Of a DNA stretch of 64,000 bases, positions 91 through 24,989 are shown one piece after another (the first letter of the stretch is position 1; each line of letters begins with the position of its first letter). Below the pieces are notes generated by a model. That model made no database searches and had not been told where the DNA came from. It saw nothing but the letters and a program-made list of their open reading frames with translations. Source of the stretch: a virus (taxonomy: Duplodnaviria > Caudoviricetes); the IMG/VR virus record IMGVR_UViG_3300005680_000030, positions 1,452 to 65,451 of that record; one strand, given 5' to 3'. The translations under genes were made by a program, and so were the position numbers.

Positions 91-261
91 CCGGATCCTG
101 CACAGGCGACACATGCGCGGTGTCACGTTCGGCCGGGATGGCCGCCTGACTGCCCATAAGATGCCGCCCTGCAAGGTCGGACACAACACGGTCGAATGGG
201 TGGACGGAGAGTGCTTCCTCTGTGTGAGAGATCGGCTTTGGCTGGAGATGGAGGCGCGGGA
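58..261 (+). repeat. 14-bp direct repeat ATGGAGGCGCGGGA at 58-71 and 248-261
   Basis: Exact match read from the sequence; brackets the 71..268 ORF. Confidence 0.8.
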
Positions 262-268
262 GACATGA
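71..268 (+). CDS. Hypothetical small Cys/His protein
   Basis: ATG at 71 with GGAGG upstream; MHPKLPDRIL...CKVGH...CFLC; stop overlaps next ATG (ATGA). Confidence 0.55.
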   Translation: MHPKLPDRILHRRHMRGVTFGRDGRLTAHKMPPCKVGHNTVEWVDGECFLCVRDRLWLEMEARET

Positions 269-660
269 CCGCCGCGCCCCTGACCATGCGCCAGGCGGCC
301 GTGGCGCTCGGCATCTCCTACCGGGCCATGATCGACGTCGTCGGCCGCCTCGAGCCCAACGTTCACTACGATCTCCGAGGGACTGGAAAGGCGCGCCCGC
401 GCCGGGTCTTCTATCCTGACCAGATAGAGCGGATTCGGAGAGACGGATGGCCCTCAAGGTCGTGTGGCGTGACGGCTGGGCGCACCTCCACGGGACCGCG
501 GGTGGTCGGCGCATACGAGAGAGCCTTGGAACTCGCGACCCGGAGCAAGCTGAAGAACTGCGGGCTGCCGCCGAGACCAAGCTCCACCGAGAACGGGTCT
601 ACGGCGTCGAGGCGGTCGCCACGTTCGACGAAGCCGCCGAGAAATACATCCTCCACCTGA
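265..660 (+). CDS. Excisionase-like HTH protein
   Basis: MTAAPLTMRQAAVALGISYRAM HTH-like N-terminus; directly upstream of and overlapping the integrase. Confidence 0.6.
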   Translation: MTAAPLTMRQAAVALGISYRAMIDVVGRLEPNVHYDLRGTGKARPRRVFYPDQIERIRRDGWPSRSCGVTAGRTSTGPRVVGAYERALELATRSKLKNCGLPPRPSSTENGSTASRRSPRSTKPPRNTSST

Positions 661-1448
661 TCGACCAGGGGAAGCCGGTCCGCTACCTCGCCCCGATCAT
701 TACGCACCTCCGAGGCCGCGTGCTGCGCACGATCACGCCGGGCGACCTCAAGGACATGGCGCGGAAGCTCTATCCCGACGCCAAGCCCGCAACGAGGCGC
801 CGGCAGGCGATCACGCCCGCAGCGGCCATCATCAACTTCGCCGCCGAGAACTACCAGTGGTGCCACCCGATCAAGATCCGCTACCCGACCGGGCCGAAGG
901 CTCGGAAGAGGGCAGTCGGCTATGACTGGGTCGACGCCGTCCGCGCCGAGGCCGCGCGCCGCCGTCTGGTCCACCTTCGCGCGCTGATGCTCTTCCTCTA
1001 CCAGACCGGGTTCCGAATTTCCGAAGCGGCCCGGCTCGAGCCCGCCGACGCCGATCTCGACGACGCCAGCGTCGCCGCCGGCCGCACCAAGAACGGCGAT
1101 CCGCGGCGCATGGCGCTGACGCCAGAGATGGTCGAAGAACTGCGCGCGCTGCCGCCGCGAGCCGGCCGACTGTTCGGCTACACGTCCGAGGCCGGCGTCA
1201 GGCAGGCGCTGAGGCGGGTCTGCCCTGGCGCTGGCGTCGACTACCTCGGGACGCACCAGCCCGGCCGCCACAGCTTCGCTACGGCGCTGGACGGGGCCAT
1301 GTCGACCAAGGCGATCTCTGACGCCGGCGGCTGGAAGACGCTCCGCATCGTGGCGGACAACTATCTTCACCCCGACGGACCCGAGCGGAAAGCCGCCAGC
1401 ATCCTGTCGCGGACGCCGGCAAAACGAGGCCGCCCGCGCCGCAAATGA
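447..1448 (+). CDS. int: Tyrosine recombinase / phage integrase
   Basis: Catalytic set TGFRISEA (R), RTKNG (K), HQPGRHSFAT (HxxR-like), GGWKT, NYLH (Y); short N-terminal arm-binding segment. Confidence 0.92.
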   Translation: MALKVVWRDGWAHLHGTAGGRRIRESLGTRDPEQAEELRAAAETKLHRERVYGVEAVATFDEAAEKYILHLIDQGKPVRYLAPIITHLRGRVLRTITPGDLKDMARKLYPDAKPATRRRQAITPAAAIINFAAENYQWCHPIKIRYPTGPKARKRAVGYDWVDAVRAEAARRRLVHLRALMLFLYQTGFRISEAARLEPADADLDDASVAAGRTKNGDPRRMALTPEMVEELRALPPRAGRLFGYTSEAGVRQALRRVCPGAGVDYLGTHQPGRHSFATALDGAMSTKAISDAGGWKTLRIVADNYLHPDGPERKAASILSRTPAKRGRPRRK

Positions 1449-2176
1449 TTGAGAACCAGCGCAATTCTAGATATGCTCTACCTATCATGTCAGATATCAT
1501 CAGATACTACGGGCGCAGTCTCGCAAGCCGACTGGAGCGCCTCAAGATCTCGATCGATACCCTTGCCTTTCTTTCAGGCGAGAGCGTCGAGACCCTGAAC
1601 CACCTCACCAAGACAGGCGGCGAGTCCCCTAGCAGGCTCGCCGCCATACTCTGCCTTCTGGCGACGGCAGGGCCAGAGCGTCGCGCCTATGTAGAGCGAC
1701 TGGCGGCAGAGGACCGGGGTGGCGCGCGCGTCGAGTGGCGCTCGATCCCTCAATTCCCCGACTATGAGGCGTCCACTATGGGCAAAATCCGTCGCGTGAG
1801 TGGAAGCGGACGAGCATGGGTCGGCCGCGCGCTCAAGGAGAAGACGACCCGCACGGGCCACAAGAATGTAACGGTCGTATCGCCGGGAGGCCGCCAGGTG
1901 ATGATCGGGGTTCATCGTCTCGTCTCCATGGCCTTCCACGGCGCACCGCCTGACGACAAGCCCATGTCGCTACATCGGAATGGTGTGGCCGACGACAATC
2001 GGCCGGAGAACCTCTATTGGGGCGACCATCTTGAGAACGTGGCGGACCGAATACGCCACGTTCGAGAGGCCCGCCCGCCGGCCAGCGCGCCGCGAACCCC
2101 CGCCGCGACACAAACGCGGCACAAAAAATACGAGACGAAGATGGTGCGAGGAGTGGAGAAGCGCATTCTTCGCTAG
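1445..2176 (+). CDS. HTH-NUMOD4-HNH endonuclease (alternative start 1487)
   Basis: EWRSIPQFPDYEASTMGKIRR (NUMOD4); VHRLVSMAFHG...SLHRNGVADDNRPENLYW (HNH_3-type); lower GC than flanks. Confidence 0.8.
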   Translation: MIENQRNSRYALPIMSDIIRYYGRSLASRLERLKISIDTLAFLSGESVETLNHLTKTGGESPSRLAAILCLLATAGPERRAYVERLAAEDRGGARVEWRSIPQFPDYEASTMGKIRRVSGSGRAWVGRALKEKTTRTGHKNVTVVSPGGRQVMIGVHRLVSMAFHGAPPDDKPMSLHRNGVADDNRPENLYWGDHLENVADRIRHVREARPPASAPRTPAATQTRHKKYETKMVRGVEKRILR

Positions 2177-11152: not shown

Positions 11153-11183
11153 CCTCTATCCAGAAATCGCCTTTTTCGCAAGT
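11153..11183 (-). promoter_or_regulatory. Putative tRNA promoter TTGCGA-N17-TAGAGG with overlapping operator-like site (11165-11183)
   Basis: -35 at 11181..11176, -10 at 11158..11153; predicted +1 falls near the tRNA 5' end. Confidence 0.5.
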
Positions 11184-14100
11184 CACCCGTTGATGAGCGG
11201 CGCAAGGCCCTCGCGGAGCTGTCCCTCCAGGCGCGGATTGAGCGAAACGCCGCCCTGCATCCGCGCGCTCGCCCGCTCGCGCGACTGGACCGAGCGGCGC
11301 AGGCTGTCGGTCGTGATCGGGTAGGTCGGGTTCTCGGCGTTGAACGTGGTGATCCGCTCGATCAGCCTGGCCGGCGGCTTGTCGCCGGCGCGCACCGCGC
11401 GCGAGTAGGCCCCCATCAGACTCGACCGCTGGTCAAGGATCTCGCGCTCGCGCTTCTTGAGCAGCGAGTTGGCGCGATACCGCTCGGCCAGGCCCGCCGG
11501 GACGAAGCCGACGCTCTGACGCAGCGCGTCGCCCCAGCCCATATCCTCCATGATCGGATCGCCGTTCAGGGTGGTTGCGCCCTCGCCGAGGTATCGTGCT
11601 GCGCGGATCTGGTCGCGGACGAACTTCGGCGCGATCGTCTCGATCCCGCGCAGGACGTGCCCGTCCTCGATCATGTTGAAGCCGCGCCACAGGTTCTCGC
11701 CCATCCCGACGCCGGCGCCGAGCATCTGCGAGACCCAGAACTGATACTCGCTCGATCCCTCAAGCTGCCGGTCGGGCGAGCGGAACCACAGATCGGGCAT
11801 GCCGATGCGGTTGGTCACGTCGATCCCAAGCACATGACCAGGAACGCCGTTGAGCAGCATGCCGGCGAGGCTCGGCCCAAGCGTCTCGACGAGATGGCCC
11901 TTCATCTCGTCCTCGAGGTCGTCGGCGTCGCCGGCGAAGAACAGCGCCATGAGCGCCATCGCCAGGCTGTAGCCCCAGACGCCGCGCACGCCAGCGTGCA
12001 GGAAGAGCATGCCCGTGATGCCGGCAAGCTGCGCCCGCGCCTCGCGGCGCACCTCCGGGCTCTCGCCCTTGACCGCCTGATGTGTGTCGCGGAACAACCG
12101 CCACAAGAGGTTAATTTGGAAATTTCTGAACACAAACAAGATCTTAGTATAGTCGCTGTGCATCAGTCGGGGGCGCGAAGACGCGCTGTAGTCGAAGTGC
12201 GTCTTCCACGTCAGGTCGGCCGCCTTGGCGATGGCATCCTCGCCAATGAGACCCTTCGCCTTCGCCATGCGGTAGGCGGCGAGGAACGTGACCTCGCGGT
12301 TCATGCGCTCCGTGTGGTGGAAGCCCCACGAGATGACGCTCATGACCCGGTTGCGCGCGGCGCTGTATTCGATGCCGCTCTCGCCGACGCCGGCGAGGTC
12401 ATGCGCCTGGCTCTTGTCGACGGTCCCGCGCCGATAGGCTTCCTCCATCGCGGCGACCTCGTCGGCGGTCAGGCGCTTCGACGTCGCCGCCCAGCCCTTG
12501 CCGTCACCGAAGTCGCGCAGCGCGCGGCCGAGCTGCTTCGCCGCGTCGCCGACGCCGCCATAGGCGCCGAGCACCGCCGTCCCGACGATGCTGGTCTGCG
12601 AGAGGTTGACGAGCGCGGCCGCGGGCGTCACCGACAGGTAGTAGACGAAGGCCGCCGAGGTGATCGCCTGCGACCACCACGATCCGGTCGGGCTCATCGT
12701 CCACTTGTGGCGCTTCTCCATCTCCGACCATACGAGCCCGGCGCGGACCGGATCGGGGGCGCGCTGCGCCTGGCGCTCGGACATCGTCAGCGCCTCGTCG
12801 AGGTCGATCGAGTAGCGCAGGCGAGCGAGCTGGTGCGCGCCGTGGAACATATGATGGCCGAAGGCGCGGAAGGCGTCGCGCTCGAATCCCGGCGTACCCT
12901 TGCGGTGGATCCGGCTCTTGCGGAGCGACAGGTCGGGCATGGTTTCCAGCCACCGCTGCCAGACCGCGTCCATGATCCGCGGGTTCACCTCGGCATCGTC
13001 GAGGATTCCCTCGACCGCCGCGACGAACTCGGGGTTCACCATGTCGCGGAGCGCGGTTTCGCCGATCGTGCCGACCGTCACGTCGTGAGACGGGTTCTTG
13101 CGCTGCTCCGCGGCGAACCGCTCCTGCGCCCGGGGCCCCTCGAACCTCGAGAAGCTCAGAACCTTCCCGCTGTCCCGGTCCCGGGTGGTGACGAAGAACT
13201 GGCCGAAGCGGGCCAGCGGGAAGTAGGGCGCCGGCACCTTCTGCGTCTCGAACAGGGCGCGGAGATCGACCATGCGGCTCCGGCGGCCCATACGCGCCTT
13301 GATCTGCGCCCGGTCCAGCTTGCGCTTGGCGGCCGTGATCTCCCGGTCACGCGCCTCGCCGGTCAGGCCCTCGTCGTTGATCTCGGCCAGCCGGTCGTCG
13401 TGCGCGCGCTGCGCGCGGCGATCCTCCTGCTCCATCGCCCGCGTGACGTTGCGCTCGAGCGTGTCGTCGAAAGCGTCGCCGAGCGCCTTGTGCTCGTCGC
13501 GCACGCGCCGGTACATCCCCTGGTAGGGCGCTGGCAGGGCGTTGAACCGCTTGCGCAACTCGGCGTGCTTGGCCCGGCGCTCCTGGTCGTTCGCGAGGTT
13601 CTCGGCGGCGATGCGCCCGGCCTCGCCGCCGGTTCCCTTCGCCAGCGCGGCCTTGTCCTTGTCGTTCAGTCCCGAGACGAACCGCTCGGCCGGGTCGGTC
13701 CCCGCAAGGGTCGCGTCGTGCATTAGGTCCATGAGCGCGGCGTTGTCCGGTCCCCGCACGCCCAGCTTGCGCCACGCCTGCGCGACGTCGTCGGTGCGGG
13801 CGTGCCACTCGTTGCGCAGCGCGTCCATCTCCTCCTTGAGGCGCAGATAGTCCTGGGACGCCGGCATGTGCTTGCCGAGCTCGGCGAAGAGCGCGCGGCC
13901 GGGTACGAGCGCGAGCAGGTTGGTGTTGCCAGACATGGCCTTGGTGAGCGCGTGCGAGACGATCTTGCGCTCGCCGGCGATGGCGGCCGCCTTGGGGATC
14001 GCCGAGGCAAGCGAGTAGGAGACGCCCGGGCGCGGACGCAGGGGCGCCGCGCGCAGCGCCGCCGCGGCGATGGCGCGGAGCTGCGCCGGCGTCACCGCGC

Positions 14101-17100
14101 CGATCTGCCGCCCGAAGCGCCGCAGGATGAACGCCTGGATCTCGCCCAGGATGCGGTCGACGATCTCGAGGATCCCGGCCGGCGCGCCGGCGCGCTCCTC
14201 GATCGCATAGGCGGCAAGCTCCTCGGCGTTCATCTGGCGCGGGCCGAGGCGGTCGAACGCCCTACCCCACCAGCCGTCCGTCGGCGCGCCCGCCTGCATC
14301 TGCCGCCGCAGGATGGCGTCGAGGCGGCGCATCATGCCGTCCCAGGCGGGCGTGCCGATGACGCTCTCGCCGCCGGCGTGGAACGCCTCGTGCAGGAGCA
14401 CCGGCACGGCGGTCTCGGCCGTCAGGTTCGATGCGACCAGGTGGATCACGCCGTCGGCGTCGGTCATGCCCTGGATGCGACCGGAGACCGCCGATTCCTT
14501 GACTGAATCACCACCCTCGGCTATGTTGCCATCCGAGCCAGGGCTACTAGGATGGCGCTCGCCATCCCGATATGCGGCAGACGAGCGCCGCCGTTCGTTC
14601 GAGAGTTGGCCCGGCTCGTCCCCAGCCACCGGCGGCACTCCACCCTTGAAAACCGACCGCGGAGTGCGTATCCTGCCGCTCGCGCGTAGGGCATTGATGG
14701 TGTCGCTCAGCGAGGCGTTAAGGGAATCAGCCCCGGTATGTCTATATCCATCGCCCTCGCGCTCAGCTCTCACGTATAGGATCGATCCGGCCCGCTCGGC
14801 GCCGCGAAGCATCTCGCGCGCGCCTTGCTTGTCGTAGACGGTCACGACAACGGTAGCGGCGGCGGCCTGGCTGTCCTTTCCCGCGCGCTTGATCGCGGCA
14901 ACCACCACGTCGCCGTCAGCAGTCTCGGCATCCGTCACCAGCAGGAGGTCGCCGGATCGCTCGTCGCCAGCATTGCGCAGCACGAACACCGGGTTTGCAA
15001 GGAGCACAGGCAGATCGCGCACCGCGGACGGCGGAACATCGGGATGCTCCCTGAGCACCCGCTTGAGCTTGCCCGGCGACATGATCAAGGACTGACCTCG
15101 GCCACCGAATGCTCTTAGGATCTCAGGGACGGGCCCGAGCTCCATGCTGCTTGAGAGGTCGAACCCGCCGCGGAGAAGGTCGAGAACCTGCCGGCCCCAG
15201 CCCGATAGGGAGTTCTGCCCGCCCTCCCCCGGAAGCGTCTCCTCCGTGTCGTGCAGGACGATCCGGCCGGCGTCGATGGCGCTTTCGACCATGACGCCGA
15301 ACGGGCCGCGGCGCAGAACGGCGCGCAGGGCATCAGTCCCCGCGAGCGCGTCGCCAGCATCGCCTGCGGCAATCGAGAACGACTCCCCCTCGCCCTCGAT
15401 GTCAGCCTCGGGGATAGGGGCGACGACCTCCGCCGGCGCGGGCGGCTCGTATATCGCCCGGGTGAGGTCGCGCACCTCCGCCTCGAGCTTCGTCAGCGCG
15501 TCTGCGTCCTTGAACTCGCTGCCCTGGCGCTTTGCGTAGTCGGTTGCCTCGCGCTCGGAATCGGCCTTCATCTTCTCGCTGCGCTCGAGACGGTGCTCGA
15601 AGCTGTCGAGGATGCTCTCTGCGGAGCGGATCGTTCCGACCTCCGAGGTGGAGACTGCCACATCGACCGAGAACTGCTCGTCGATGGCAAGGTTCACGTC
15701 CCATTGCCACGCGCCGCCCAGCTTCCACGCGCTCAAGGTCAGTGGGAACCCACCGAGTTCGCCGATCTCGCGATTCTTCATCTCGCGCGGCTCGGCCAGA
15801 TCGTCCTTGACCTTGGCGAGGAGCGCCGCGCCCGCCTCGGCGCGCTTGTCATAGGCCGTGCCGTCGATCGTCGCCTTGAAGGCGTCGCCCTTGGTCTCGA
15901 CGCGCCGCGTGATGGCGCCCTTCCACCGCTCGATTGCCGTCTCGGCGTAGGCGGCATTGCTCTTCGCATTGGCGACGCGCCGGCGCAGCGCGTACTGCTC
16001 CTGCGAATGGGCGGCGGCGCGACGCCGCAGCCGCTCAAGATCCTGCCGCATCTCGGTGAGCTGAACCACGCGGGGATCGGCGGTGGAGAGCGCCTTCGCC
16101 TGCTCGTAGAATGCGGCCTCGCCCAGGTCGTCCATGTCGCGGACGGTCGTGTCGCCGTTCCAGAAGCTCTCGATGAAGCGGCCCTTGCGCTCCATCATCT
16201 GCCACATGGTCGAATCGTAGGAGCCCTTGAGGCCGTAGTCGTGGATCTCGATCTCGGGGTTCATGTTGCCTTGGCGCAGCGCGCGGCCGTTCCGCTGCTC
16301 GTCGTCGGCGGGATACCAGAGCGGGTCGAGGTTGTGGCTGGCGATCAGGCGGCGCTGCACGTTGGTCCCGACGCCCATCTTCGGCCCGGAGCCGATCAGC
16401 ACGCGGATCTTGCCCTCGTTCACGTCGTTGAAGAGGCGCTGTTTCGCCACGTGGGTCTTGAAGTCGGAGATGAAGGCGATCTCGTCGCGCGGCACGCCGC
16501 GGCGCATGAGTTCCGACCGGATGTAGGCCGGAACCTGGAATGCGCCGGTGAGCCCGAGGTTGGCGAACACGAGCTGGGTGGCCGGGCCGTGCATGATCGG
16601 CTTGGCGCTGTAGCCGCCAGATTCGGGCCGGTAGAACGGCTGGTTCTTCGACCGCTTCCAGATCTCGAACACATTCTCGACGAGCGTGTCGAGCTTGGAC
16701 GGCGCGTCAGGTTCCGGGCGGTAGAGGATCGAATCGACCATCCGCATGTCGATGTTCGCCTTGCGGCCGTCGTTGATGACCGAGAGGATGATGTCGTCGC
16801 CTGCCTTCGGCGGCCCCTTCCGCTCCTCGATCGCCGTGATCCGGGCCGCGAGGCCCGCCTGGAAGTCCATGAAGTCGCCGCTGCGCTCGGCGAGGTGCAT
16901 GGTGCGCTTGCCGCCCTTGAGCTTCGGCCGGGTCACGTACTGCTCGAGCTGGCGCGAGGTCACGACGTCGACGTTCTGCCGGACCATCGCCGATAGCTGC
17001 GGGATGTTCACGAAGCGCGAGAAGCGCGAGACCATCTTGTATTTGCCCGCGGCGTCCTGCTCCGGCGCCGAGACCGACTCGCCAAAGGCGCTCGCCCACG

Positions 17101-20100
17101 CGTCGAACTGCTGGAGGTTGCGGGCCTCCAGTTCGCCCCCCTGGATGTAGCGCGACAGGGTGAACAGCTCGGCCATCGTGTTCGTGACCGGCGTTCCAGA
17201 CGCGAGCACGAGGCTGCGCCCGGGCTTCATCGACTCCAGGTAGCGGCTCTTGACGTAGAGATCCCAGGCCATGCCCGAGCCGTTCGGGTCGATGCCCTTG
17301 AGGTTCCCCATCTTGGTCGCGAAGTCGAGCTTGCGGAACAGGTGCGCCTCGTCGACGAAGAGGAAGTCGACGCCCATCTCCTCGAACGTGAAGACCTGAT
17401 CCTTGCCCGATCCCTTGCGGCCGGAGAGGCGCTGCTCGAGCTTCTCGATCTGGTTCTCGATCTTCTTCCGGGTGATCCGGGTATCCTGCCCCTTGTCCAT
17501 CTCGCCGAGGATCTCGCGATACTCGGCGATCTCCGCCTGCACCATGCGATCCTGGAACGCCTCGCTGATCGGCACCTTGCCGAACGAGGAGTGCGTGATG
17601 ATGACGGCGTCGAGGTCGCTCATCGAGACGTTGGCGATGAACTGCTTGCGCCGGTCGGTGTGGAACTGGCGCTCGTCGGCGACGGAGATCCGGGCGGTCG
17701 GATACTGCTCGTAGAACTCCTTGGTGAACTGCGCGAGCATGTGGTTCGGCACGACGTACATCGGCTTCCGCACGAGCCCGAGGCGGCGCATCTCCATGCC
17801 CGCGCCGATCATGGCGCTGGTCTTCCCGGCGCCGACGGCGTGCGCCATGTAGGTGTTGCCAGCCTGGACAATGCGGGCGACGACGCGCTGCTGGTGCGGC
17901 CGCCATCTCCACGACGTCGAGACGCCGGGCGTGGTCAGGTAGGATCCGTCGAAGTCGCGCACGACGAGGTTGTTGTAGGTCTCGTTGTAGAGCGCCGCGA
18001 GGCGGTCAGCCCGCGCCTCGTCCTGATAGATCCAGCCCTCAAACGCCTCCCTGATCTCCTTCGCCTTGGCGAGAGCGGCCTCGGTCTGCTCCTTGTCGGT
18101 GACGGAATCGTAGCCGCCGTCGGCGCGCGCCACGCGGTTGACGACCTTGATCTCGCCCTTGTTCAGCACCGCCTTGAGGATGCTGGTCGCATCGACGCGG
18201 CTGGTCCCCCAATCAGAGGTCGCGGCGGCCGACGTCTCGTCGCCTTCAACCTGCCAGAACGCGAGGCGCGGGGAATAGGTGGCCTTGAACCGGGCGAGGC
18301 CGAGGCGCGCGGTCGCGAACTCCTCGACCGTGGCGGGCGGGATCCACGGCATGCCCAGCGTCGCGGCGATCTGCGCCGGCGCAAGGTCGATCGGCTGGAC
18401 CGCCTCGAGCGCGTCGACGTTGCGCTGGAATCGAGGATCGCGATCGGCGGCCACCTTCGCGTCGCGGAGCTTCTGGCGAACGTTCCCCGACAGGTATTCG
18501 TCGCTGATGAGCCAGTCGCCGGTGGACTTGGGGTTCTCGTAGACCCGCGGTCCCAGCTTCTCCAGCGCCTCGCCGGCGCTCACCTTGAACGCCGCCGCGA
18601 CCGCGTCGAGGTCGAACCGGCCGCGATCGTTCATCACGTAGAGCACCGCGTCCTCGATGCTCTTGATCTCCGGCGTCAGCGGCCGCGAGATCACGTTCTT
18701 GAAGAACACCTCGGTCTTCTGCGCTTCGCCGGTGGCGTCGTTGTAGCTCTCGATGGCGCGGAGCCGGTAGCTCTCGGGGTCGTCGCCGAACGGCTCGATG
18801 TTCGGACGCTTGTCGATCACCACGTCGGGCATGTCGTCCGGGTCGAACGCGCCCTCGCTCCATTCCCGGCCGGCGGCGACCGCCGCCTCGCGCGCCTCTT
18901 TGCGGGCTCGGGCGACGGCCTGAGTGCCCTTCCCGTCCGCGATCAGCGCCGACGGGTCGAACGAGCCCTCGTCGAAGGGCTCGCCAGCATAGCGCGCCTC
19001 CTCGCGCGCCTCCGCCCTGGCGTTCTCCGCCTGCACGGAGGTCGGGCGGCGATAGCTGATCTCGGCCTTATTGATCGGCCCGTGCCGCTGGGTGAAGGCG
19101 TCGTAGGCCGCATTGAGACGGCGGCGGGCCTTCTGCCCATTGGCCGCGTCGTTGGCGAGGTCCGCGGCGTAGACGGCGCGCAGCGCGTCGCGCACCGGCA
19201 CGAGGCTGCGGATGACCTCGATCTCCTGCGCGCTCCGCCCGCCTGTCACGCCCTTGCCACGCTGCTCGACCGCCACGCCGACGCCGTCCCGCTGCTGCAT
19301 CAGGGCGTCGCCCTTGAGGTAGAACGAGCCTTCCTTGCGCTCGGCTGACGCGAAATCCACCTCGGCGCGGTCCTGCGGCGTCTCGGGCTCGCGCATGACG
19401 CCCTCGGGGAGATTCGACAGCGCGATCGGAAGTTCGGCCGCGAGGTTCGCCCCCGGGCGCGAGCGGACGCCGTAGCGGCCTGCATAGAGCTTGTCGAAGA
19501 AGCCCTCCTCGCCCAGCACCATGTCTGGGTGGTCGACGAAGTAGCGGCTGACGGCGCCCTCCTTGTCGTTCCCGTTCTTGTCCTTGAGCGTGACGGTCCT
19601 CGTCTCCATCGACGGCGACAGGACGCCATCGGGCAGCAGATCCAGCTCGGCGGGCATGAACTTCCGCAGCACGATGATGTCGGTCGTCACCGCGGTCCCG
19701 GCGTTCTTCTCGAAAGCGTCGCCCGGCAGGCGCACGGCGCCGACGAACTCCGCCCGATCGGACAGATACTCGCGCGCCTTGGTGTCAACCTTGTTCAGCG
19801 TGCCGGCGGAGGTCACGAACATGAGCAGGCCGCCCGGGCGGACAGCATCGAGGCTCTTGGCGAAGAAGTAGTCGTGCAGCAGGAACCCCTGCGGATAGCC
19901 GGGGTCGCTCTTGATCGGGATGTCGGCGAACGGCGGGTTGCCGATCACCAGGTCGTAGGAATCGCGCGGGAGCGGGGCCTTGGTGAAGTCGTCCTGGCGC
20001 ACACCCCATTTGGGATAGAGGAGGCGCGCGATCTTCGCCGTCGTCGGATCGAGCTCGAGCCCGCTATAGGCCGTCCGTTCGGCGAGCGCCGCCGGCATCA

Positions 20101-23100
20101 TGCCCGCGAAGTTGCCCGTCCCCATGCCGGGCTCGAACACCGAGCCGCCCTTGAAGCCCAGCCGCTCGGCGGCATCCCACATGGCGCGCACGACGGTCTC
20201 GGCGGTGAAGTGGGCATACTGCGTCGTGCGGCGGGCCGTGGCATATTCCGTCTCGGAGAGAAGGCCGCGCAGCTCCTCGCCGATCTTCTCGTAGCCCTTG
20301 CCGAACGCGCCGGCCTGGTCGGGGAACACGGACGCGAGGCCGCCCCAGCCGACATAGCGGGCAAGCGCCTCCTGCTCCTGCGCGGTCGCCGGACGGCCCT
20401 CCGCCTCGATCGCGCGGACGAGCTTGATGGCGGTGATGTTGTCGTGGGCCTTCGCCTTCCAGCCGCGCGCCTCGTCGAGTGCGCCGGGCTTAATGACGTG
20501 GTTCTGGCTTACGCCGGCGGGAACTCGATCAGCGTCTCGAGAACCTGCCTCTCGGCCTCCTGTCGGTGCGGGTTCTCGGGCAGGCCGTTCGGCAGCTTCG
20601 GCGCGCTGGCGGTCAGGTCGGCGAACATCCTGCTCGCCTCCTCTGCCTTCGCCTGAACGTGCGCCTCGAGCTGGCCCTTGGCCTGCAGATCCCTGAACAT
20701 CTCCGGGGCCTGCTGGCGCATCGCTGTCAGGTACGGGCCCTTGAACTCCATCCTGCGTCCCCTCCTCGATGCCCTTGAGCGCCGCGCGCACCGCGTCGGC
20801 GTCGTCCATCCCTTCGATCGACTGCCCGCTGTCCTCGAGCATGTCGCGCGCGCCATTGTACCATGCCCGGAGATACTTCCGAAGCGCGGCCGGCGTCGTG
20901 CCGAGGTCGTCGGCGATGGCTTTCGCCAGGTTGGTAAACGATCGCGCCCCGGCCTCGATGTGGAACACCGCGAGCTCGGCCCCGATCGCAAGGATCTCGG
21001 GGTCGATGCCCGAACGGAGCTCGGTCTTGAGCTTTGCCTTGAGGCGTTCCCGCAGCTCGGCGGCGCGGTCGGCCGTGACGAGGATGTTGCTCGCGCCGTA
21101 GGCCGCGGGGGTGGCTACTTGCGTTTTCGGGGATTCCGGCTCGGATTTTTGCGTTTTGGGCGATTCCGCGGGTTTGGCATCAGACGGCTCGTCTTCGAGC
21201 GCTTCGATGGATCGGAAAATGCTCGGGTCCGCAGCCTTCTTGGGGATCTTGCTGTCCGCTACCGCGGCGTCCACCGCCTCCTGTGCGGTTTTGCCGGACC
21301 CCGATCCGCCGCGGGTCGGGCCGCGGACACCAGCGACGAAGCCTTCGCCGGACTCCCGTTCCTGGACGAAGTTGATACGATAGCCCTCCGGCGCTTCGGC
21401 CTTGGCTTTAGCTCCGCCGACCGGGCGCGACGTGACGGTCCCCTTGGCTGGGTCAATGACGATCGCGACGCCAGCGGGCTTCGGCACAGGCGTGCGGAGA
21501 TGCTCGGCGAGGTCGGTGTTGCCGCGCTTGGTCGCGAACGGCTTCCGGGTGTCGCCCTGCAGGAGCCAGGACTTGAACCGGCCGACGCCAACCTCGGTGA
21601 TGGCGCCCATGCGGCGGCCGCCGCTTCCGTCGGAGAAACCCGCCTCGTAGGTGGCGCGGGCCTCCTGCTCGGTGAACGTTCCGAGCACCACCTTGTGCTC
21701 ATCGAACTTGCCCGTCTCCGGGTCGATCTGGTCGACGATGAAGACGTTGCCGCTCTGCGGCTGTTCGCCCACATAGACGTCGACATGGTCGCCGTCCGCG
21801 CCCTCGGTCCGCCGGATATAGCCGTAGTGCGCCGGCAGGGTGACGCTCCACTCCGTGCCGTCCTTCGCCTTCCCGCGCCGCTCGCCGCCCTTGGCGGTCT
21901 CGATGGTGACGTCGAGGCCATGCACCTTCACATGGCCCATCTGGTAGTTGCCGGCCTCCTTCTGCGCGTCGGAGGGTTCGGGGTTGGCCTTTGCGGCTTC
22001 CTCGGCGATCGGGTCGGCCTGCACGGTCCTCGCGCGGTGCTTCCGCGCCGCCTCCAACGCGCTCGCGCGCACCGCGCTCTGCTGCTGCGGGCTCATGGTG
22101 GCGAAGCCCGCCGCGACGTTCGCGAGGTTTTCCCCGGCCGGGCCGAACACGACGAGGTTCTTCCCGCTGCTGTCGTAGCCGGCGCGGAAGCCGATAGGCA
22201 TTTCCGCGTTGATGGCCTCGACAGGATCGGCCGCCAGCTTCTGGGTCGCCGCCGGAGCGCCGACAGCCGCCTTCACCTTCTCCTCGTGCTTGCGCGAGAA
22301 GATCCATCCCTTTTCCCGGGCGTCCCATTTCAGGCTGACGCCGGGAACGTCGACCGGCGGCGCGTCGGGCGTGCCGCCGCGGATGATCGCGGCCTTCTCG
22401 CGGATGTGCTCGACGGTGAGGTTGGCACCGGAGGAGGGAGTCGAACCCTCGGGACCGGGTTTTGGAGGCCCGTCCACCGCCGCGGCGCTCTGATCTGCTT
22501 CGGCCGCGGGCGCGGCGGCGACCTCAAGTTCCCGCTCGGGCTCGGCCTCCGCCGGCGCGGGCGGCTGCGGCGGGGTGCGGTCGGTGTCGGCCGGCGCGGG
22601 CGCTTCGGGAGCGGAAGGCGCCGCGGCCTCGACAGCCGCGGCAGTTGCCGCCTCGGGGGCGGTAGGCGCTGCCGCCTCATCGACCGGCGCGCTGACCTCT
22701 GGTTCAACGAGAGGGGCGATTTGCTCCTGATCCGGCACGACGGTCTCAACAGCAACATCCTGCGCCGTCGCTGCGTCGCCGGGCGTCTGCTGCACAACAT
22801 CTGACCGATCCGCTCCGGCTTCGGCGTCTCCCGGCGCCGGGGTCTGCGCCGCCGGTCGCGCGACGAACCCACCGCCCTCGGCCATGATCTCGTAGGCCGC
22901 CGGATCCAGTCGGCGGTTGCGGACCGCCTGGCGCGCCTGCGCCTCGGTCTTGAAGGGCGTCCCGTCGCGGCGCGTGATCGGCGCGGCCTCGGGCTGCTCG
23001 CCCGGCTCGGGCGGCGCGACGGCTTCCGGCTGCGGGATTTCGATCCCGCTGGGCGTCGCCGCCTCAACGGCGGCCTCGAGGTCGCCGAGCTGCTGGCGCA

Positions 23101-24925
23101 GGGCGGCACGTTCCTGCTCGAACTGCTTCGGCAGGCCGCCAGTCTGTCGGCGCTGGGATTCGAGGAAGTCGAGGCGCGCGCGGAGCGCGTCGTTGTCCTG
23201 CGGCGCGGGCGCGGGCGCGGCTGGCGCGCTGGGGGCAGGGGCGTCGGCCGCGGCCGCTTCGCTCAGTGCGCCCGGCGCCGGCGCGGGCGGCGCGGGCTGC
23301 ATCGGCGCAGAATCGACGGCCGGCGCGGCGGCGGCAGGATCGACGACGGAGACGATCGCGGAGCCAGCCTCGATCTCGTCGCGGCCGACAACGACCTCGT
23401 CGCCGTCGTCGAGCTTCACGCGGACGCCGTCGGGCGTCTCGCCCACCAGGACTCCGGTGAACGCCTGCGGCCCGGTCTCGCTCTGCACCTCGATCTGCAC
23501 GGGAGCGCCCGGCATGGCGTCCGGGGTGATCGCGGCGGGCCCTTCGCCGAGTGCGGCCTCGAGCGGACCGCGCGGCGGCGCGGGCGACTCACTCTCGCCG
23601 TCGATCGGGTGGCGCGGCGTCACCAGGGCTGGCGCTGGCAGGCCGAGCGGGGCAGGCGCGGCATCCGCCTCCGTCTCCGCCTCGTCCGGGGTGGCGTTTT
23701 CAGGCGCGGCGGCTGGCTCGGCGCGCGACGGGATCGCGCCAGAGATGCCGCCCGCGCCGCCGCCGAGCACGGCGCCGACGGCGAAGTTGGTCAGCGCCTC
23801 CTCGCCATACTGCTCGGCGAGATAGGGCGCGATCTCCGCCATGTCGGCCTCGGAGAGCTTTTCGCGCAACTCCGGGTTCAGCATGAGCTGGTCGATCGCC
23901 ATCTGGCTCACTTCCGTCATGCCCTCGATGAGCGCGGTCTCGGTGCCCTCCTTTGCGACCCGGCGGAAGATGGACGTCGCCGCGCGCTCGACTGGCGCGC
24001 CGCGACCCAGCTTGGTGATGATCTTGAACGGGGCCACCTGCTCGAGCGCGGTCTTGACGGCCGCGGCGGCGTAGATCTGGTTCTGGACGGCCGGATCGTC
24101 CAGGTTCTCGTTGTGCTCGGCCGCCGTGCGCGCGGACTCATCGAGGAGCATTGGGAACGACGCGAGCAAGCCGAGGGCGACCGCGCCGAGCGGTCCGCCG
24201 ACGAGGCCACCGACGACCGCGCCGCCGATCGACGCGCCGAGAGTGGGCGCGGCCTGCGCGGCGTCGCCCGGCAGGTTGGCCGCGACCCGGCCGACCATGT
24301 TCTTTCCCTCGCTTCGCCGCGCGCGGTCGGCGGCGATGCGTGCCTGCGTCTCCTCCGGGGCGTCGATCGCGTCGCCGGCAGTGGTCAGCGCATCCCCGAC
24401 ACCCTCCGCTCCGAGGTCCGATGCGATCCGGCCCGCGCCGCGCACCGTCGAGCCGGCTGTATCCCGCACGCCGGCAACAGCGCGCTCGCCGAGCCCTACA
24501 CGGGCCTCCGGCGCATCCGGGTTACGCTCCAGGTAGAGCTGTTGCGCCCGGCCGACGACGGCCGACGTGAAGTCGTCGGGCGCGCCAGAGGCTCGGAGCG
24601 CGTCCGAGAACGTCATGCCCTGCGAGATGCTGCTTGCGATGCGCGCGGCGGTCTCGGTCGCAAGGCGCGATCCTGCTTCACCTCCGCCAGAAATCTCTGA
24701 AATCGCAAGTAGCGCCGAGTGCGGAACGCGATATTCAGCCGAGGCTGCGGCGATGGTATCGAGGTCGGGCGCGTGCGGCAGAGCGGCATTGGCTGCGCCG
24801 CTTGGCGCACCGTAAATATCTGAATTTACTTTAGAATTTGGCGCAACGCTTCGGGGTGTGCGCCGCCTTTCGATCTCACCTAGAGCGTTCTGGAGCGGGC
24901 TGCGGGAGAAGACGTTATCGGCCAC
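11183..24925 (-). CDS. Giant DarB-like polyvalent virion protein (~4580 aa): InPase-like, N6-adenine MTase, SNF2 helicase, MuF-C-like, HExxH and PLxRFG domains
   Basis: HYGYIRRTEGADGDHVDVY (InPase-like); FEPGMGTGNF and NPPF (MTase); AHAVGAGKT and DEAH (SF2); LLHEAFH; YFPLARFG. GTG start at 24925 has a GAGG RBS and lies downstream of the promoter at 24982-24954. Confidence 0.92.
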   Translation of the reverse strand: MADNVFSRSPLQNALGEIERRRTPRSVAPNSKVNSDIYGAPSGAANAALPHAPDLDTIAAASAEYRVPHSALLAISEISGGGEAGSRLATETAARIASSISQGMTFSDALRASGAPDDFTSAVVGRAQQLYLERNPDAPEARVGLGERAVAGVRDTAGSTVRGAGRIASDLGAEGVGDALTTAGDAIDAPEETQARIAADRARRSEGKNMVGRVAANLPGDAAQAAPTLGASIGGAVVGGLVGGPLGAVALGLLASFPMLLDESARTAAEHNENLDDPAVQNQIYAAAAVKTALEQVAPFKIITKLGRGAPVERAATSIFRRVAKEGTETALIEGMTEVSQMAIDQLMLNPELREKLSEADMAEIAPYLAEQYGEEALTNFAVGAVLGGGAGGISGAIPSRAEPAAAPENATPDEAETEADAAPAPLGLPAPALVTPRHPIDGESESPAPPRGPLEAALGEGPAAITPDAMPGAPVQIEVQSETGPQAFTGVLVGETPDGVRVKLDDGDEVVVGRDEIEAGSAIVSVVDPAAAAPAVDSAPMQPAPPAPAPGALSEAAAADAPAPSAPAAPAPAPQDNDALRARLDFLESQRRQTGGLPKQFEQERAALRQQLGDLEAAVEAATPSGIEIPQPEAVAPPEPGEQPEAAPITRRDGTPFKTEAQARQAVRNRRLDPAAYEIMAEGGGFVARPAAQTPAPGDAEAGADRSDVVQQTPGDAATAQDVAVETVVPDQEQIAPLVEPEVSAPVDEAAAPTAPEAATAAAVEAAAPSAPEAPAPADTDRTPPQPPAPAEAEPERELEVAAAPAAEADQSAAAVDGPPKPGPEGSTPSSGANLTVEHIREKAAIIRGGTPDAPPVDVPGVSLKWDAREKGWIFSRKHEEKVKAAVGAPAATQKLAADPVEAINAEMPIGFRAGYDSSGKNLVVFGPAGENLANVAAGFATMSPQQQSAVRASALEAARKHRARTVQADPIAEEAAKANPEPSDAQKEAGNYQMGHVKVHGLDVTIETAKGGERRGKAKDGTEWSVTLPAHYGYIRRTEGADGDHVDVYVGEQPQSGNVFIVDQIDPETGKFDEHKVVLGTFTEQEARATYEAGFSDGSGGRRMGAITEVGVGRFKSWLLQGDTRKPFATKRGNTDLAEHLRTPVPKPAGVAIVIDPAKGTVTSRPVGGAKAKAEAPEGYRINFVQERESGEGFVAGVRGPTRGGSGSGKTAQEAVDAAVADSKIPKKAADPSIFRSIEALEDEPSDAKPAESPKTQKSEPESPKTQVATPAAYGASNILVTADRAAELRERLKAKLKTELRSGIDPEILAIGAELAVFHIEAGARSFTNLAKAIADDLGTTPAALRKYLRAWYNGARDMLEDSGQSIEGMDDADAVRAALKGIEEGTQDGVQGPVPDSDAPAGPGDVQGSAGQGPARGARSGEGRGGEQDVRRPDRQRAEAAERPAREPAPTGGREAGSRDADRVPAGVSQNHVIKPGALDEARGWKAKAHDNITAIKLVRAIEAEGRPATAQEQEALARYVGWGGLASVFPDQAGAFGKGYEKIGEELRGLLSETEYATARRTTQYAHFTAETVVRAMWDAAERLGFKGGSVFEPGMGTGNFAGMMPAALAERTAYSGLELDPTTAKIARLLYPKWGVRQDDFTKAPLPRDSYDLVIGNPPFADIPIKSDPGYPQGFLLHDYFFAKSLDAVRPGGLLMFVTSAGTLNKVDTKAREYLSDRAEFVGAVRLPGDAFEKNAGTAVTTDIIVLRKFMPAELDLLPDGVLSPSMETRTVTLKDKNGNDKEGAVSRYFVDHPDMVLGEEGFFDKLYAGRYGVRSRPGANLAAELPIALSNLPEGVMREPETPQDRAEVDFASAERKEGSFYLKGDALMQQRDGVGVAVEQRGKGVTGGRSAQEIEVIRSLVPVRDALRAVYAADLANDAANGQKARRRLNAAYDAFTQRHGPINKAEISYRRPTSVQAENARAEAREEARYAGEPFDEGSFDPSALIADGKGTQAVARARKEAREAAVAAGREWSEGAFDPDDMPDVVIDKRPNIEPFGDDPESYRLRAIESYNDATGEAQKTEVFFKNVISRPLTPEIKSIEDAVLYVMNDRGRFDLDAVAAAFKVSAGEALEKLGPRVYENPKSTGDWLISDEYLSGNVRQKLRDAKVAADRDPRFQRNVDALEAVQPIDLAPAQIAATLGMPWIPPATVEEFATARLGLARFKATYSPRLAFWQVEGDETSAAATSDWGTSRVDATSILKAVLNKGEIKVVNRVARADGGYDSVTDKEQTEAALAKAKEIREAFEGWIYQDEARADRLAALYNETYNNLVVRDFDGSYLTTPGVSTSWRWRPHQQRVVARIVQAGNTYMAHAVGAGKTSAMIGAGMEMRRLGLVRKPMYVVPNHMLAQFTKEFYEQYPTARISVADERQFHTDRRKQFIANVSMSDLDAVIITHSSFGKVPISEAFQDRMVQAEIAEYREILGEMDKGQDTRITRKKIENQIEKLEQRLSGRKGSGKDQVFTFEEMGVDFLFVDEAHLFRKLDFATKMGNLKGIDPNGSGMAWDLYVKSRYLESMKPGRSLVLASGTPVTNTMAELFTLSRYIQGGELEARNLQQFDAWASAFGESVSAPEQDAAGKYKMVSRFSRFVNIPQLSAMVRQNVDVVTSRQLEQYVTRPKLKGGKRTMHLAERSGDFMDFQAGLAARITAIEERKGPPKAGDDIILSVINDGRKANIDMRMVDSILYRPEPDAPSKLDTLVENVFEIWKRSKNQPFYRPESGGYSAKPIMHGPATQLVFANLGLTGAFQVPAYIRSELMRRGVPRDEIAFISDFKTHVAKQRLFNDVNEGKIRVLIGSGPKMGVGTNVQRRLIASHNLDPLWYPADDEQRNGRALRQGNMNPEIEIHDYGLKGSYDSTMWQMMERKGRFIESFWNGDTTVRDMDDLGEAAFYEQAKALSTADPRVVQLTEMRQDLERLRRRAAAHSQEQYALRRRVANAKSNAAYAETAIERWKGAITRRVETKGDAFKATIDGTAYDKRAEAGAALLAKVKDDLAEPREMKNREIGELGGFPLTLSAWKLGGAWQWDVNLAIDEQFSVDVAVSTSEVGTIRSAESILDSFEHRLERSEKMKADSEREATDYAKRQGSEFKDADALTKLEAEVRDLTRAIYEPPAPAEVVAPIPEADIEGEGESFSIAAGDAGDALAGTDALRAVLRRGPFGVMVESAIDAGRIVLHDTEETLPGEGGQNSLSGWGRQVLDLLRGGFDLSSSMELGPVPEILRAFGGRGQSLIMSPGKLKRVLREHPDVPPSAVRDLPVLLANPVFVLRNAGDERSGDLLLVTDAETADGDVVVAAIKRAGKDSQAAAATVVVTVYDKQGAREMLRGAERAGSILYVRAEREGDGYRHTGADSLNASLSDTINALRASGRIRTPRSVFKGGVPPVAGDEPGQLSNERRRSSAAYRDGERHPSSPGSDGNIAEGGDSVKESAVSGRIQGMTDADGVIHLVASNLTAETAVPVLLHEAFHAGGESVIGTPAWDGMMRRLDAILRRQMQAGAPTDGWWGRAFDRLGPRQMNAEELAAYAIEERAGAPAGILEIVDRILGEIQAFILRRFGRQIGAVTPAQLRAIAAAALRAAPLRPRPGVSYSLASAIPKAAAIAGERKIVSHALTKAMSGNTNLLALVPGRALFAELGKHMPASQDYLRLKEEMDALRNEWHARTDDVAQAWRKLGVRGPDNAALMDLMHDATLAGTDPAERFVSGLNDKDKAALAKGTGGEAGRIAAENLANDQERRAKHAELRKRFNALPAPYQGMYRRVRDEHKALGDAFDDTLERNVTRAMEQEDRRAQRAHDDRLAEINDEGLTGEARDREITAAKRKLDRAQIKARMGRRSRMVDLRALFETQKVPAPYFPLARFGQFFVTTRDRDSGKVLSFSRFEGPRAQERFAAEQRKNPSHDVTVGTIGETALRDMVNPEFVAAVEGILDDAEVNPRIMDAVWQRWLETMPDLSLRKSRIHRKGTPGFERDAFRAFGHHMFHGAHQLARLRYSIDLDEALTMSERQAQRAPDPVRAGLVWSEMEKRHKWTMSPTGSWWSQAITSAAFVYYLSVTPAAALVNLSQTSIVGTAVLGAYGGVGDAAKQLGRALRDFGDGKGWAATSKRLTADEVAAMEEAYRRGTVDKSQAHDLAGVGESGIEYSAARNRVMSVISWGFHHTERMNREVTFLAAYRMAKAKGLIGEDAIAKAADLTWKTHFDYSASSRPRLMHSDYTKILFVFRNFQINLLWRLFRDTHQAVKGESPEVRREARAQLAGITGMLFLHAGVRGVWGYSLAMALMALFFAGDADDLEDEMKGHLVETLGPSLAGMLLNGVPGHVLGIDVTNRIGMPDLWFRSPDRQLEGSSEYQFWVSQMLGAGVGMGENLWRGFNMIEDGHVLRGIETIAPKFVRDQIRAARYLGEGATTLNGDPIMEDMGWGDALRQSVGFVPAGLAERYRANSLLKKREREILDQRSSLMGAYSRAVRAGDKPPARLIERITTFNAENPTYPITTDSLRRSVQSRERASARMQGGVSLNPRLEGQLREGLAPLING
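20509..20751 (-). CDS. Nested out-of-frame ORF, TnpV-like (80 aa), inside the giant gene
   Basis: GAGGAGGGG RBS 7 nt before ATG; codons mostly G/C-ending, unlike the giant frame over the same bases; YLTAMRQQAPEMFRDLQAKGQLEAHV...EAERQVLETLI. Confidence 0.7.
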   Translation of the reverse strand: MEFKGPYLTAMRQQAPEMFRDLQAKGQLEAHVQAKAEEASRMFADLTASAPKLPNGLPENPHRQEAERQVLETLIEFPPA

Positions 24926-24953
24926 GGGCGCCTCGTCGCTTGGTGAGAGGCGC

Positions 24954-24989
24954 ACTATAGCCGACGAGAAACTATCCGAAAAGGATAGT
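24954..24989 (-). promoter_or_regulatory. Late promoter TTTTCG-N17-TATAGT overlapped by palindromic operator ACTATCC-GAAAA-GGATAGT (24971-24989)
   Basis: -35 at 24982..24977, -10 at 24959..24954; upstream of the giant gene. Confidence 0.72.

Follow-up and report, generated by a model that had tools for sequence, protein, structure and literature searches.

The locus described here raises the question of whether a small open reading frame (ORF), lying out of frame inside a giant phage gene, is a gene in its own right, and which of the two overlapping readings came first. The window, by which we mean the whole stretch of 64,000 nucleotides (nt) that was analysed, covers positions 1,452 to 65,451 of the 65.4-kb virus record IMGVR_UViG_3300005680_000030 (Duplodnaviria; Caudoviricetes), which has a CheckV completeness of 99%; its G+C (GC) content is 69%. 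On the minus strand of the window, an ORF of 4,590 codons encodes a polyvalent virion protein with a DarB-like module, composed of the domain LPD36, an N6-adenine methyltransferase (MTase) and an SNF2-type helicase. The small ORF, which we call S (20751..20509), lies in the linker that leads into this module. From comparison of the sequences we conclude that S is very probably a genuine, separately translated nested gene, which is read through by the giant fusion protein in another frame.

The nested frame in the window

The elements of the overlap, and the parts of the giant gene in which it lies, are as follows.

20509..20751, minus strand: nested gene S, encoding a TnpV-like helical protein of 80 amino acids (aa); ATG at 20751..20749, TAA at 20511..20509; +1 frame of the giant ORF
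20759..20767, minus strand: Shine-Dalgarno-like sequence GAGGAGGGG, with 7 nt between the motif and the ATG of S
20510..20752, minus strand: linker in the giant frame across S, residues 1402-1482 of the giant protein; low-complexity G/A/R/P/D/E sequence, no stop
19073..20512, minus strand: start of the LPD36 and N6-adenine MTase module, with GWGG at 20350..20339 and NPPF at 19939..19928; the first codon overlaps the S stop
11183..24955, minus strand: ORF of the giant polyvalent virion protein (4,590 aa), with InPase, LPD36-MTase-SNF2 (DarB-like), MuF_C, HExxH and LPD39/PLxRFG

The giant codons start one base ahead of the S codons, which places S in the +1 frame of the giant ORF. An earlier note on this DNA, made from the letters alone, had described a nested frame on the same strand with a ribosome-binding site, an ATG at 20751 and a TAA at 20509; all of these are present, and the product is as first quoted. 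Its account of codon usage holds as well, both for the G/C-ending codons of the nested frame, where the GC content of third codon positions (GC3) is 0.93, and for the A/T-ending codons of the low-complexity giant frame over the same bases, where GC3 is 0.41, compared with 0.89 in the rest of the giant gene. The GC-rich codon phase shifts from the third position of the giant codons to the first, which is the third position of the S codons, within three 120-nt bins (20812..20453). In the giant frame the sequence across S reads DGVQGPVPDSDAPAGPGD...RVPAGV. This sequence consists to 93% of G, A, R, E, D, P, S, Q and T and contains 7% hydrophobic residues. The corresponding figures for the linker across the loci compared are 87% and 9%, whereas hydrophobic residues make up 25% of S and 29% of the MTase module.

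In a window of 69% GC an open alternative frame is not significant alone: the probability that the giant frame is open, given the S protein, is 0.40. The case beyond chance is therefore carried by homology and by relatives of lower GC content, and not by the open frame of the window.

Conservation of the arrangement and constraint on the two frames

Loci found via S come from viral contigs, Logan and JGI assemblies and one gammaproteobacterial metagenome-assembled genome (GC 58-69%). In the nested loci among them, the giant open frame is always the S frame +2, the same relation as in the window, and all related loci that were fetched show the nested arrangement. As a rule, the stop codon of S overlaps the Val-Lys in a conserved VKGENxxIEPGAL motif, with which the LPD36 module begins. 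The region upstream of S varies among the nine loci compared, with a RKYLRAWYNGARD-type helical domain in six, an InPase-like region in L015 and other sequences in L003 and L011. Therefore, S travels with the MTase module and not with what precedes it.

The reverse search started from the module. With the LPD36-MTase alignment alone, 80 viral loci were gathered, of which the S profile matched 42, and 70 after three rounds of iteration. All 70 matches lie in the +1 frame of the MTase frame and none in frame 0 or +2 (749 candidate segments). Eight of the ten loci without a profile match were inspected; each contains, abutting LPD36, a +1 ORF that spans ~95-110 codons if a plausible start is taken. 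The ORF of distant loci, whose MTases are ~38-40% identical, is a more classical TnpV-like one (MNLxNWxxQAxxHWKEHxPxxYxxLxxxGxL...EAWEMVRExYLFxP). The identity of S tracks that of the MTase module (r = 0.87, Mantel p <= 0.001), and the position of S before LPD36 is the same in most loci. On the strength of these searches, the S-then-MTase arrangement is conserved and co-inherited in phages of GC 41-68%.

Cultured phages are among the carriers. Bcep22 (gp75) and Ralstonia phage Heva (gp07) both have the S ORF (in Bcep22 at 1172..1519 of locus L126), and their RefSeq records annotate the giant coding sequence (CDS) only, in keeping with the prediction that annotation would miss the gene. These relatives were found through the MTase module and the iterated profile; a tblastn search of S against cultured phages and plasmids gave no match, the relatives being too diverged for a single-sequence query.

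The two frames are constrained in different ways. Pairwise comparison of eleven nested loci gives mean differences of 0.29, 0.24 and 0.45 at the first, second and third positions of the S codons; over the overlap, the amino-acid identity reaches 0.60 in the S frame, compared with 0.41 in that of the giant. Selection on the nested frame, which the earlier note had proposed, is borne out by a substitution check run for each frame: the ratio of nonsynonymous to synonymous differences (pN/pS) amounts to 0.49 in S, compared with 1.54 in the giant frame, figures that are rough since the pS values are partly saturated and GC3-constrained. The adjoining LPD36-MTase module is aligned in the giant frame with a mean column identity of 68%. 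Averaged over 63 distinct loci, GC3 reaches 0.82 in S and 0.75 in the MTase module, compared with 0.41 in the giant frame of the overlap.

The giant frame runs across S without a stop in all 63 distinct loci (GC 41-68%), and the third frame always contains 1-11 stops. When the S protein is fixed and synonymous codons are re-drawn from each locus's own usage, the giant frame stays open with a probability of 0.0001-0.44 per locus, and this probability is at most 0.0025 in 10 of the 11 loci of GC <= 0.53. Copies of S that are no longer nested have 5 (L017), 1 (L035/36) and 2 (L045) stops in the corresponding giant frame, and a gene in which S is followed by a C-terminal domain (L040) has 10. The GC3 of S lies well above genome level in low-GC phages, for example 0.78 against 0.48 in L084, which would fit an avoidance of T-ending S codons that keeps the giant frame free of TAA, TAG and TGA. 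The alignments and the re-drawn codons show that both frames are maintained: the amino-acid sequence of the S frame is under purifying selection, and selection on the giant frame does no more than keep it free of stops.

In ten low-GC loci (L077, L079 and L084-L091; GC 0.41-0.51), the GC3 of S is 0.53-0.79 and that of the MTase module 0.33-0.50.

The DarB-like polyvalent proteins count among the largest that phages encode, taking up one fifth of some phage genomes, and are thought to shield injected DNA from restriction. The giant protein of the window has strong Pfam matches to InPase, MuF_C and LPD39 and weak ones to an Eco57I-type MTase, ResIII, DEAD and SNF2, and its translation contains the motifs GWGG (LPD36; residues 1536-1539), NPPF (adenine MTase; residues 1673-1676), HEAFH and PLARFG. 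Judged by this domain content, the giant ORF is a phage-type polyvalent protein with a LPD36-MTase-SWI2/SNF2 dyad like that of P1 DarB, in the sense in which LPD36 and the dyad were defined (Iyer et al., 2017; PMC5512222). One further domain of the giant frame lies directly upstream of S.

20771..21088, minus strand: helical domain in the giant frame (NILVTADRAAELR ... RKYLRAWYNGARD ...), common to six of the nine nested loci compared

This domain is without a Pfam match. The NILVTADRAAELR...RKYLRAWYNGARD domain is present in many polyvalent proteins, and may be an undescribed LPD-type domain. Two other regions around S were observed. In L003 (~170..500), the giant frame upstream of S contains a GGDEF-like stretch (...AGDQLIEAVGEAL...YHVSGDEFYA...), read by eye. 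In a clade related to Sinorhizobium phage PBC5 (L113, L119, L120, L124), S and LPD36 are separated by a ~190-codon domain (HPEVGPIDLVWG...RLDYDGTAKTWLLTAFEKG) of the giant frame.

Translation of S and rival explanations

A word-indexed search yielded 14 close homologues of 80-106 aa (54-79% identity). All of them begin with MEFKxPYL (one with MLFK) at the equivalent of Met1, and almost all have ETLIEFP near the end, followed by a short variable tail, with a longer read-on in P0003. In the 20 nested and free-standing homologues that were read directly, an ATG or GTG start codon encodes the first residue of the family; among the free-standing genes, the start is GTG in L001 and ATG in L017. The S start is preceded, at ~7-10 nt, by a GGAG-type motif, and the spacing is no different in the free-standing genes. 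Such a motif was flagged before most of the 63 distinct S ORFs by a start-picking script that favoured candidates having one. In the stored metagenome gene calls of L003 and L019, S is listed as a gene, and the giant gene is begun only downstream of S.

In the model that we favour, S would be translated alone from its own Shine-Dalgarno sequence and ATG on the giant late mRNA, to give a free 80-aa protein of four helices. Ribosomes coming from the giant's own start would read the same 243 bases as an unconstrained, disordered G/A/R/P/D/E linker, which would join the upstream modules to the LPD36-MTase-SNF2 (DarB-like) module. Four other explanations were weighed, and are taken here in order of declining probability.

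The first is a programmed +1 frameshift, in which a fraction of the ribosomes that translate the giant sequence would shift into the S frame immediately ahead of S and make a truncated product, composed of the upstream modules and S and ending at the S stop. Shine-Dalgarno-like elements can stimulate +1 shifts, as in prfB, and the upstream helical domain is in frame with S in two cases, PBC5 (L113/L127) and a remnant, L023 (protein P0035). However, the S frame is closed only a few codons upstream of its start in many loci (6 codons in L033 and L038, 11 in L012 and L037, 12 in L009 and L011), no conserved slippery motif is visible in the short open stretch upstream of the S start, and both the ATG or GTG at the family's first residue and the layout of Shine-Dalgarno sequence and start recur in the free-standing genes. 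We give frameshifting little credence.

The two cases in which the upstream domain is in frame with S look like secondary indels. The record of PBC5 (NC_003324.1) is an old one, in which the giant gene appears as two CDSs (gp22 and gp21) separated by an unannotated gap. Here the TnpV-like domain stands in frame at the end of gp22, and the MTase frame opens only upstream of that domain; the layout is either a real split or the result of indel errors in the old sequence. L023 (940..1686), found in three metagenome samples, is a chromosomal remnant of a giant polyvalent gene, encoding 248 aa. Its helical domain is fused in frame to S and is followed by the first ~25 codons of the MTase module in the giant frame; the neighbours are housekeeping genes and RadC.

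Alternatively, S might be a fossil frame, the remains of a swallowed gene that is untranslated and intact only through the constraint of the overlap. The required openness of the giant frame does constrain the sequence somewhat, but a giant frame with a pN/pS of 1.54 cannot explain the 60% identity and the pN/pS of 0.49 of the S frame. The S ORF, with its start, is intact in 63 distinct loci in which the MTase has diverged to 38% identity and the GC content ranges from 41 to 68%; S also stays intact where the giant has been lost, and none of the 63 combines a broken S with an intact giant frame. We consider a fossil highly improbable.

S could also have arrived as a selfish insertion, a mobile insert that landed in frame and carries its own gene out of frame, as is the case for homing endonucleases in the ShiLan element and in the dnaX intein. 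Out-of-frame passengers in phage methylase genes have been described (PMC11855218), and TnpV is a transposon-associated family (PMC3158075). Against this stands the co-divergence of S and MTase, which indicates vertical inheritance and therefore does not support an origin by homing insertion. Moreover, S sits before LPD36 at the same position in most loci, the PBC5-like group excepted, it has no Pfam match to a nuclease or recombinase, and among the loci fetched there is no close relative of the module without the insert. Insertion of this kind is in our view exceedingly improbable.

A chance ORF in a GC-rich genome, for which the 69% GC of the window and the ease with which an alternative frame of 80 codons stays open there might speak (the 0.40 above being the reciprocal case), is refuted by homologues down to GC 41%, by the conserved protein and start and by the codon-position pattern, and retains practically no probability.

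Family, origin and possible role of S

Searched against 1.84 billion representatives, the S profile gave 229 matches at E <= 0.001, of which 123 reach E <= 1e-10. With few exceptions these proteins have 55-160 aa and carry the domain from residue 1 onward; the maximum length among the best 150 is 399 aa. The S domain was not found in frame inside giant proteins, neither among these best 150 nor in a search for longer proteins, which gave only proteins of 204-326 aa composed of S and an unknown C-terminal domain. In L040 (2483..3316), P0025, P0032 and P0167-P0170, the S domain is followed in frame by a ~180-aa domain containing Cys and His residues (CPMHRAVL...YGDDYQHKTLWDEYCH); this domain has no Pfam match, and the giant frame is closed there. 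Free-standing copies of S exist in L001/L002, L017 and L045; genes found near copies of this kind encode primase, DUF3987 and HTH_17 proteins or an IS110 transposase.

The resemblance to TnpV that the earlier note had pointed out is real, though distant. No other family recurs in Pfam scans of the close and wider sets of S proteins. The S protein of the window scores 15.9 bits against Pfam TnpV (PF14198; E = 0.013) and does not reach the gathering cut-off of 27 bits, and eight divergent members, scored singly, reach 14-23 bits. At E <= 1, 21 of 23 close members match TnpV, the best of them with 6.4e-6; in the wider set of 54, 22 do so at E <= 0.01, the best with 7.2e-7. These matches cover positions ~19-111 of the TnpV profile across the wider set and only 34-73 for the close clade. 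No nuclease or recombinase family was matched in the Pfam scans of S members. The nearest ESM Atlas clusters carry TnpV labels (scores 0.88-0.89), which we take as a lead only. By its profile matches, S is TnpV-like, a putative distant relative that does not pass the family threshold.

An AlphaFold2 model of S, built from a 23-row alignment, has four helices and a predicted local distance difference test (pLDDT) score of 87. Foldseek searches of the model against PDB and BFVD returned nothing at E <= 0.001. The best match in a wide VIA-align search is 2apl_A (PG0816, of unknown function; Z 7.1, root-mean-square deviation 2.1 Å over 63 residues, 24% identity), a score within the range usual for helical models and a lead only. 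The S profile hit a single coiled-coil protein among PDB sequences, which was rejected as spurious, and in PHROGs S matches an unnamed family only, and weakly. Most S members have an isoelectric point of 4.8-6.8, near-neutral to mildly acidic; S is neither a strongly acidic DNA mimic nor a basic DNA binder.

The earlier note had S overprinted on the linker, and this direction is likely reversed. S has free-standing relatives and belongs to an older family, and the linker is without amino-acid constraint; therefore the linker frame is probably a younger reading laid over a pre-existing small gene. The history is also drawn from the co-divergence of S and MTase, from the layout of L027, in which the MTase-helicase gene starts only ~100 codons before S, and from P1-type darB, which lacks the N-terminal extension: in phage D6 it starts ~44 codons before the MTase match, which leaves no room for S, and it has no nested ORF. 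An older S gene would have stood in front of an MTase-helicase gene, and an upstream coding sequence would have come to read through S in another frame, giving one injectable fused polypeptide with S still separate.

It is conceivable, although we rate it somewhat below an even chance, that S cooperates with the MTase-translocase, be it in the producing or in the infected cell, and serves there in regulation, in assembly or as a specificity factor. S is strictly linked to the LPD36 boundary irrespective of the upstream sequence, which speaks for a role tied to the MTase-translocase; this could be control in the producing cell, assembly or packaging, or specificity. In a complex prediction, S and the LPD36-MTase part of the window protein (480 aa), both supplied as alignments, scored 0.00 against a mark of 0.32; the verdict of the tool was 'no answer', and the result weighs neither way.

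Several points count against the picture of a separately translated S that serves the MTase-translocase. The pN/pS figures are rough, as said above, and the in-frame upstream domains of PBC5 and L023 mean that other modes of expression exist or arise easily. Intact S genes stand beside lost MTase modules (L023, L035/36, L041), and S also occurs with an unrelated C-terminal domain (L040, P0025, P0032), so that S need not depend on the MTase-helicase. P1-type darB of phage D6, without room for S, indicates that DarB-type activity generally needs no S.

Genes for SNF2/MTase proteins on conjugative plasmids present the same layout. A low-complexity N-terminal stretch before an LPD36-like start overlaps a +1 ORF that encodes a small helical protein (ILxRWAxNxPxxLKxLExQG):

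962..1459 of L133: +1 ORF, C. jejuni CP132122.1
1082..1477 of L134: +1 ORF, Salmonella p14-95A
1088..1450 of L131: +1 ORF, P. aeruginosa pNY7610-IMP

The ORF of the Campylobacter plasmid (29% GC) has 166 codons, and that of the Pseudomonas plasmid is annotated as a separate hypothetical protein, WP_054913746.1. The S profile finds nothing in the plasmid ORFs at E <= 1, and the hhalign probability is 45%. In a broader proposal, injected anti-restriction modules of the MTase-translocase type would always require a TnpV-like protein as a free subunit or regulator. The gene of this protein would lie out of frame in their N-terminal linker throughout phages and conjugative plasmids (Campylobacter, Salmonella, Pseudomonas), and the giants would have been assembled by reading through the pre-existing gene. 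We regard this as unlikely; if true, it would reveal a general way of fusing genes in which the gene that is swallowed continues to function.

If DarB-like giants conceal a conserved second gene, their genetics have so far been read incompletely, and any mutant with a deleted or truncated linker would lack a second protein as well. Here nature would provide a clear example of a fusion protein that arose when an older gene came to be read through in a different frame, with constraint sharply split between the amino-acid sequence in one frame and the absence of stops only in the other. It would also give the uncharacterised TnpV superfamily a defined and repeated genetic partner. The proposal is directly testable in cultured carriers, namely Bcep22, BcepIL02-type and JC1-type phages and Ralstonia cimandefviruses: a T-to-C change in the S start codon abolishes the S start, and the Asp codon of the giant stays synonymous.

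Comparison with known systems

In phage lambda, Rz1 lies inside Rz in the +1 frame, and the two products are subunits of one complex, both of which are needed. S resembles Rz1 in being a complete small gene, with its own Shine-Dalgarno sequence and start, inside a larger gene on the same strand, an arrangement that generic gene callers miss; as in Rz1-in-Rz, the nested ORF is complete with its own start signals and both frames are maintained. It differs in that the host gene is a 13.8-kb polyvalent gene, that the overlapped part of the host is an unconstrained linker and that the small gene is apparently the older one. Rz and Rz1 form one complex, whereas a partnership between S and the giant is proposed here from conserved position. 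Rz1 inside Rz has also been noted for the phages considered here (PMC9144972).

Like TnpV (PF14198) of Tn4451-type transposons, for which an Xis-like role has only been postulated (PMC3158075), S is a small helical protein carried by mobile elements; unlike TnpV, it lies inside a phage virion-protein gene and not beside a large serine recombinase and mobilisation genes. The ShiLan element, which carries a hidden HNH endonuclease (PMC11855218), is likewise a segment that is readable in the frame of its host and encodes its own protein in another. S differs from it in not being a nuclease, in being inherited vertically with the module and in lying between domains rather than interrupting one.

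The giant protein itself shares with P1 DarB-like proteins (PMC5512222) the LPD36 domain with GWGG, the NPPF MTase and the SNF2-type helicase, as well as MuF_C, InPase and LPD39; P1-type darB of phage D6 differs in having no nested ORF. The nested S is unmentioned in the paper on polyvalent proteins (PMC5512222), in the literature on Bcep22-like phages that was searched and in the GenBank and RefSeq records consulted. Embedded out-of-frame phage genes are known, and what is new is a widely conserved embedded gene in giant polyvalent genes, one for which the direction of overprinting is likely the reverse of the usual.

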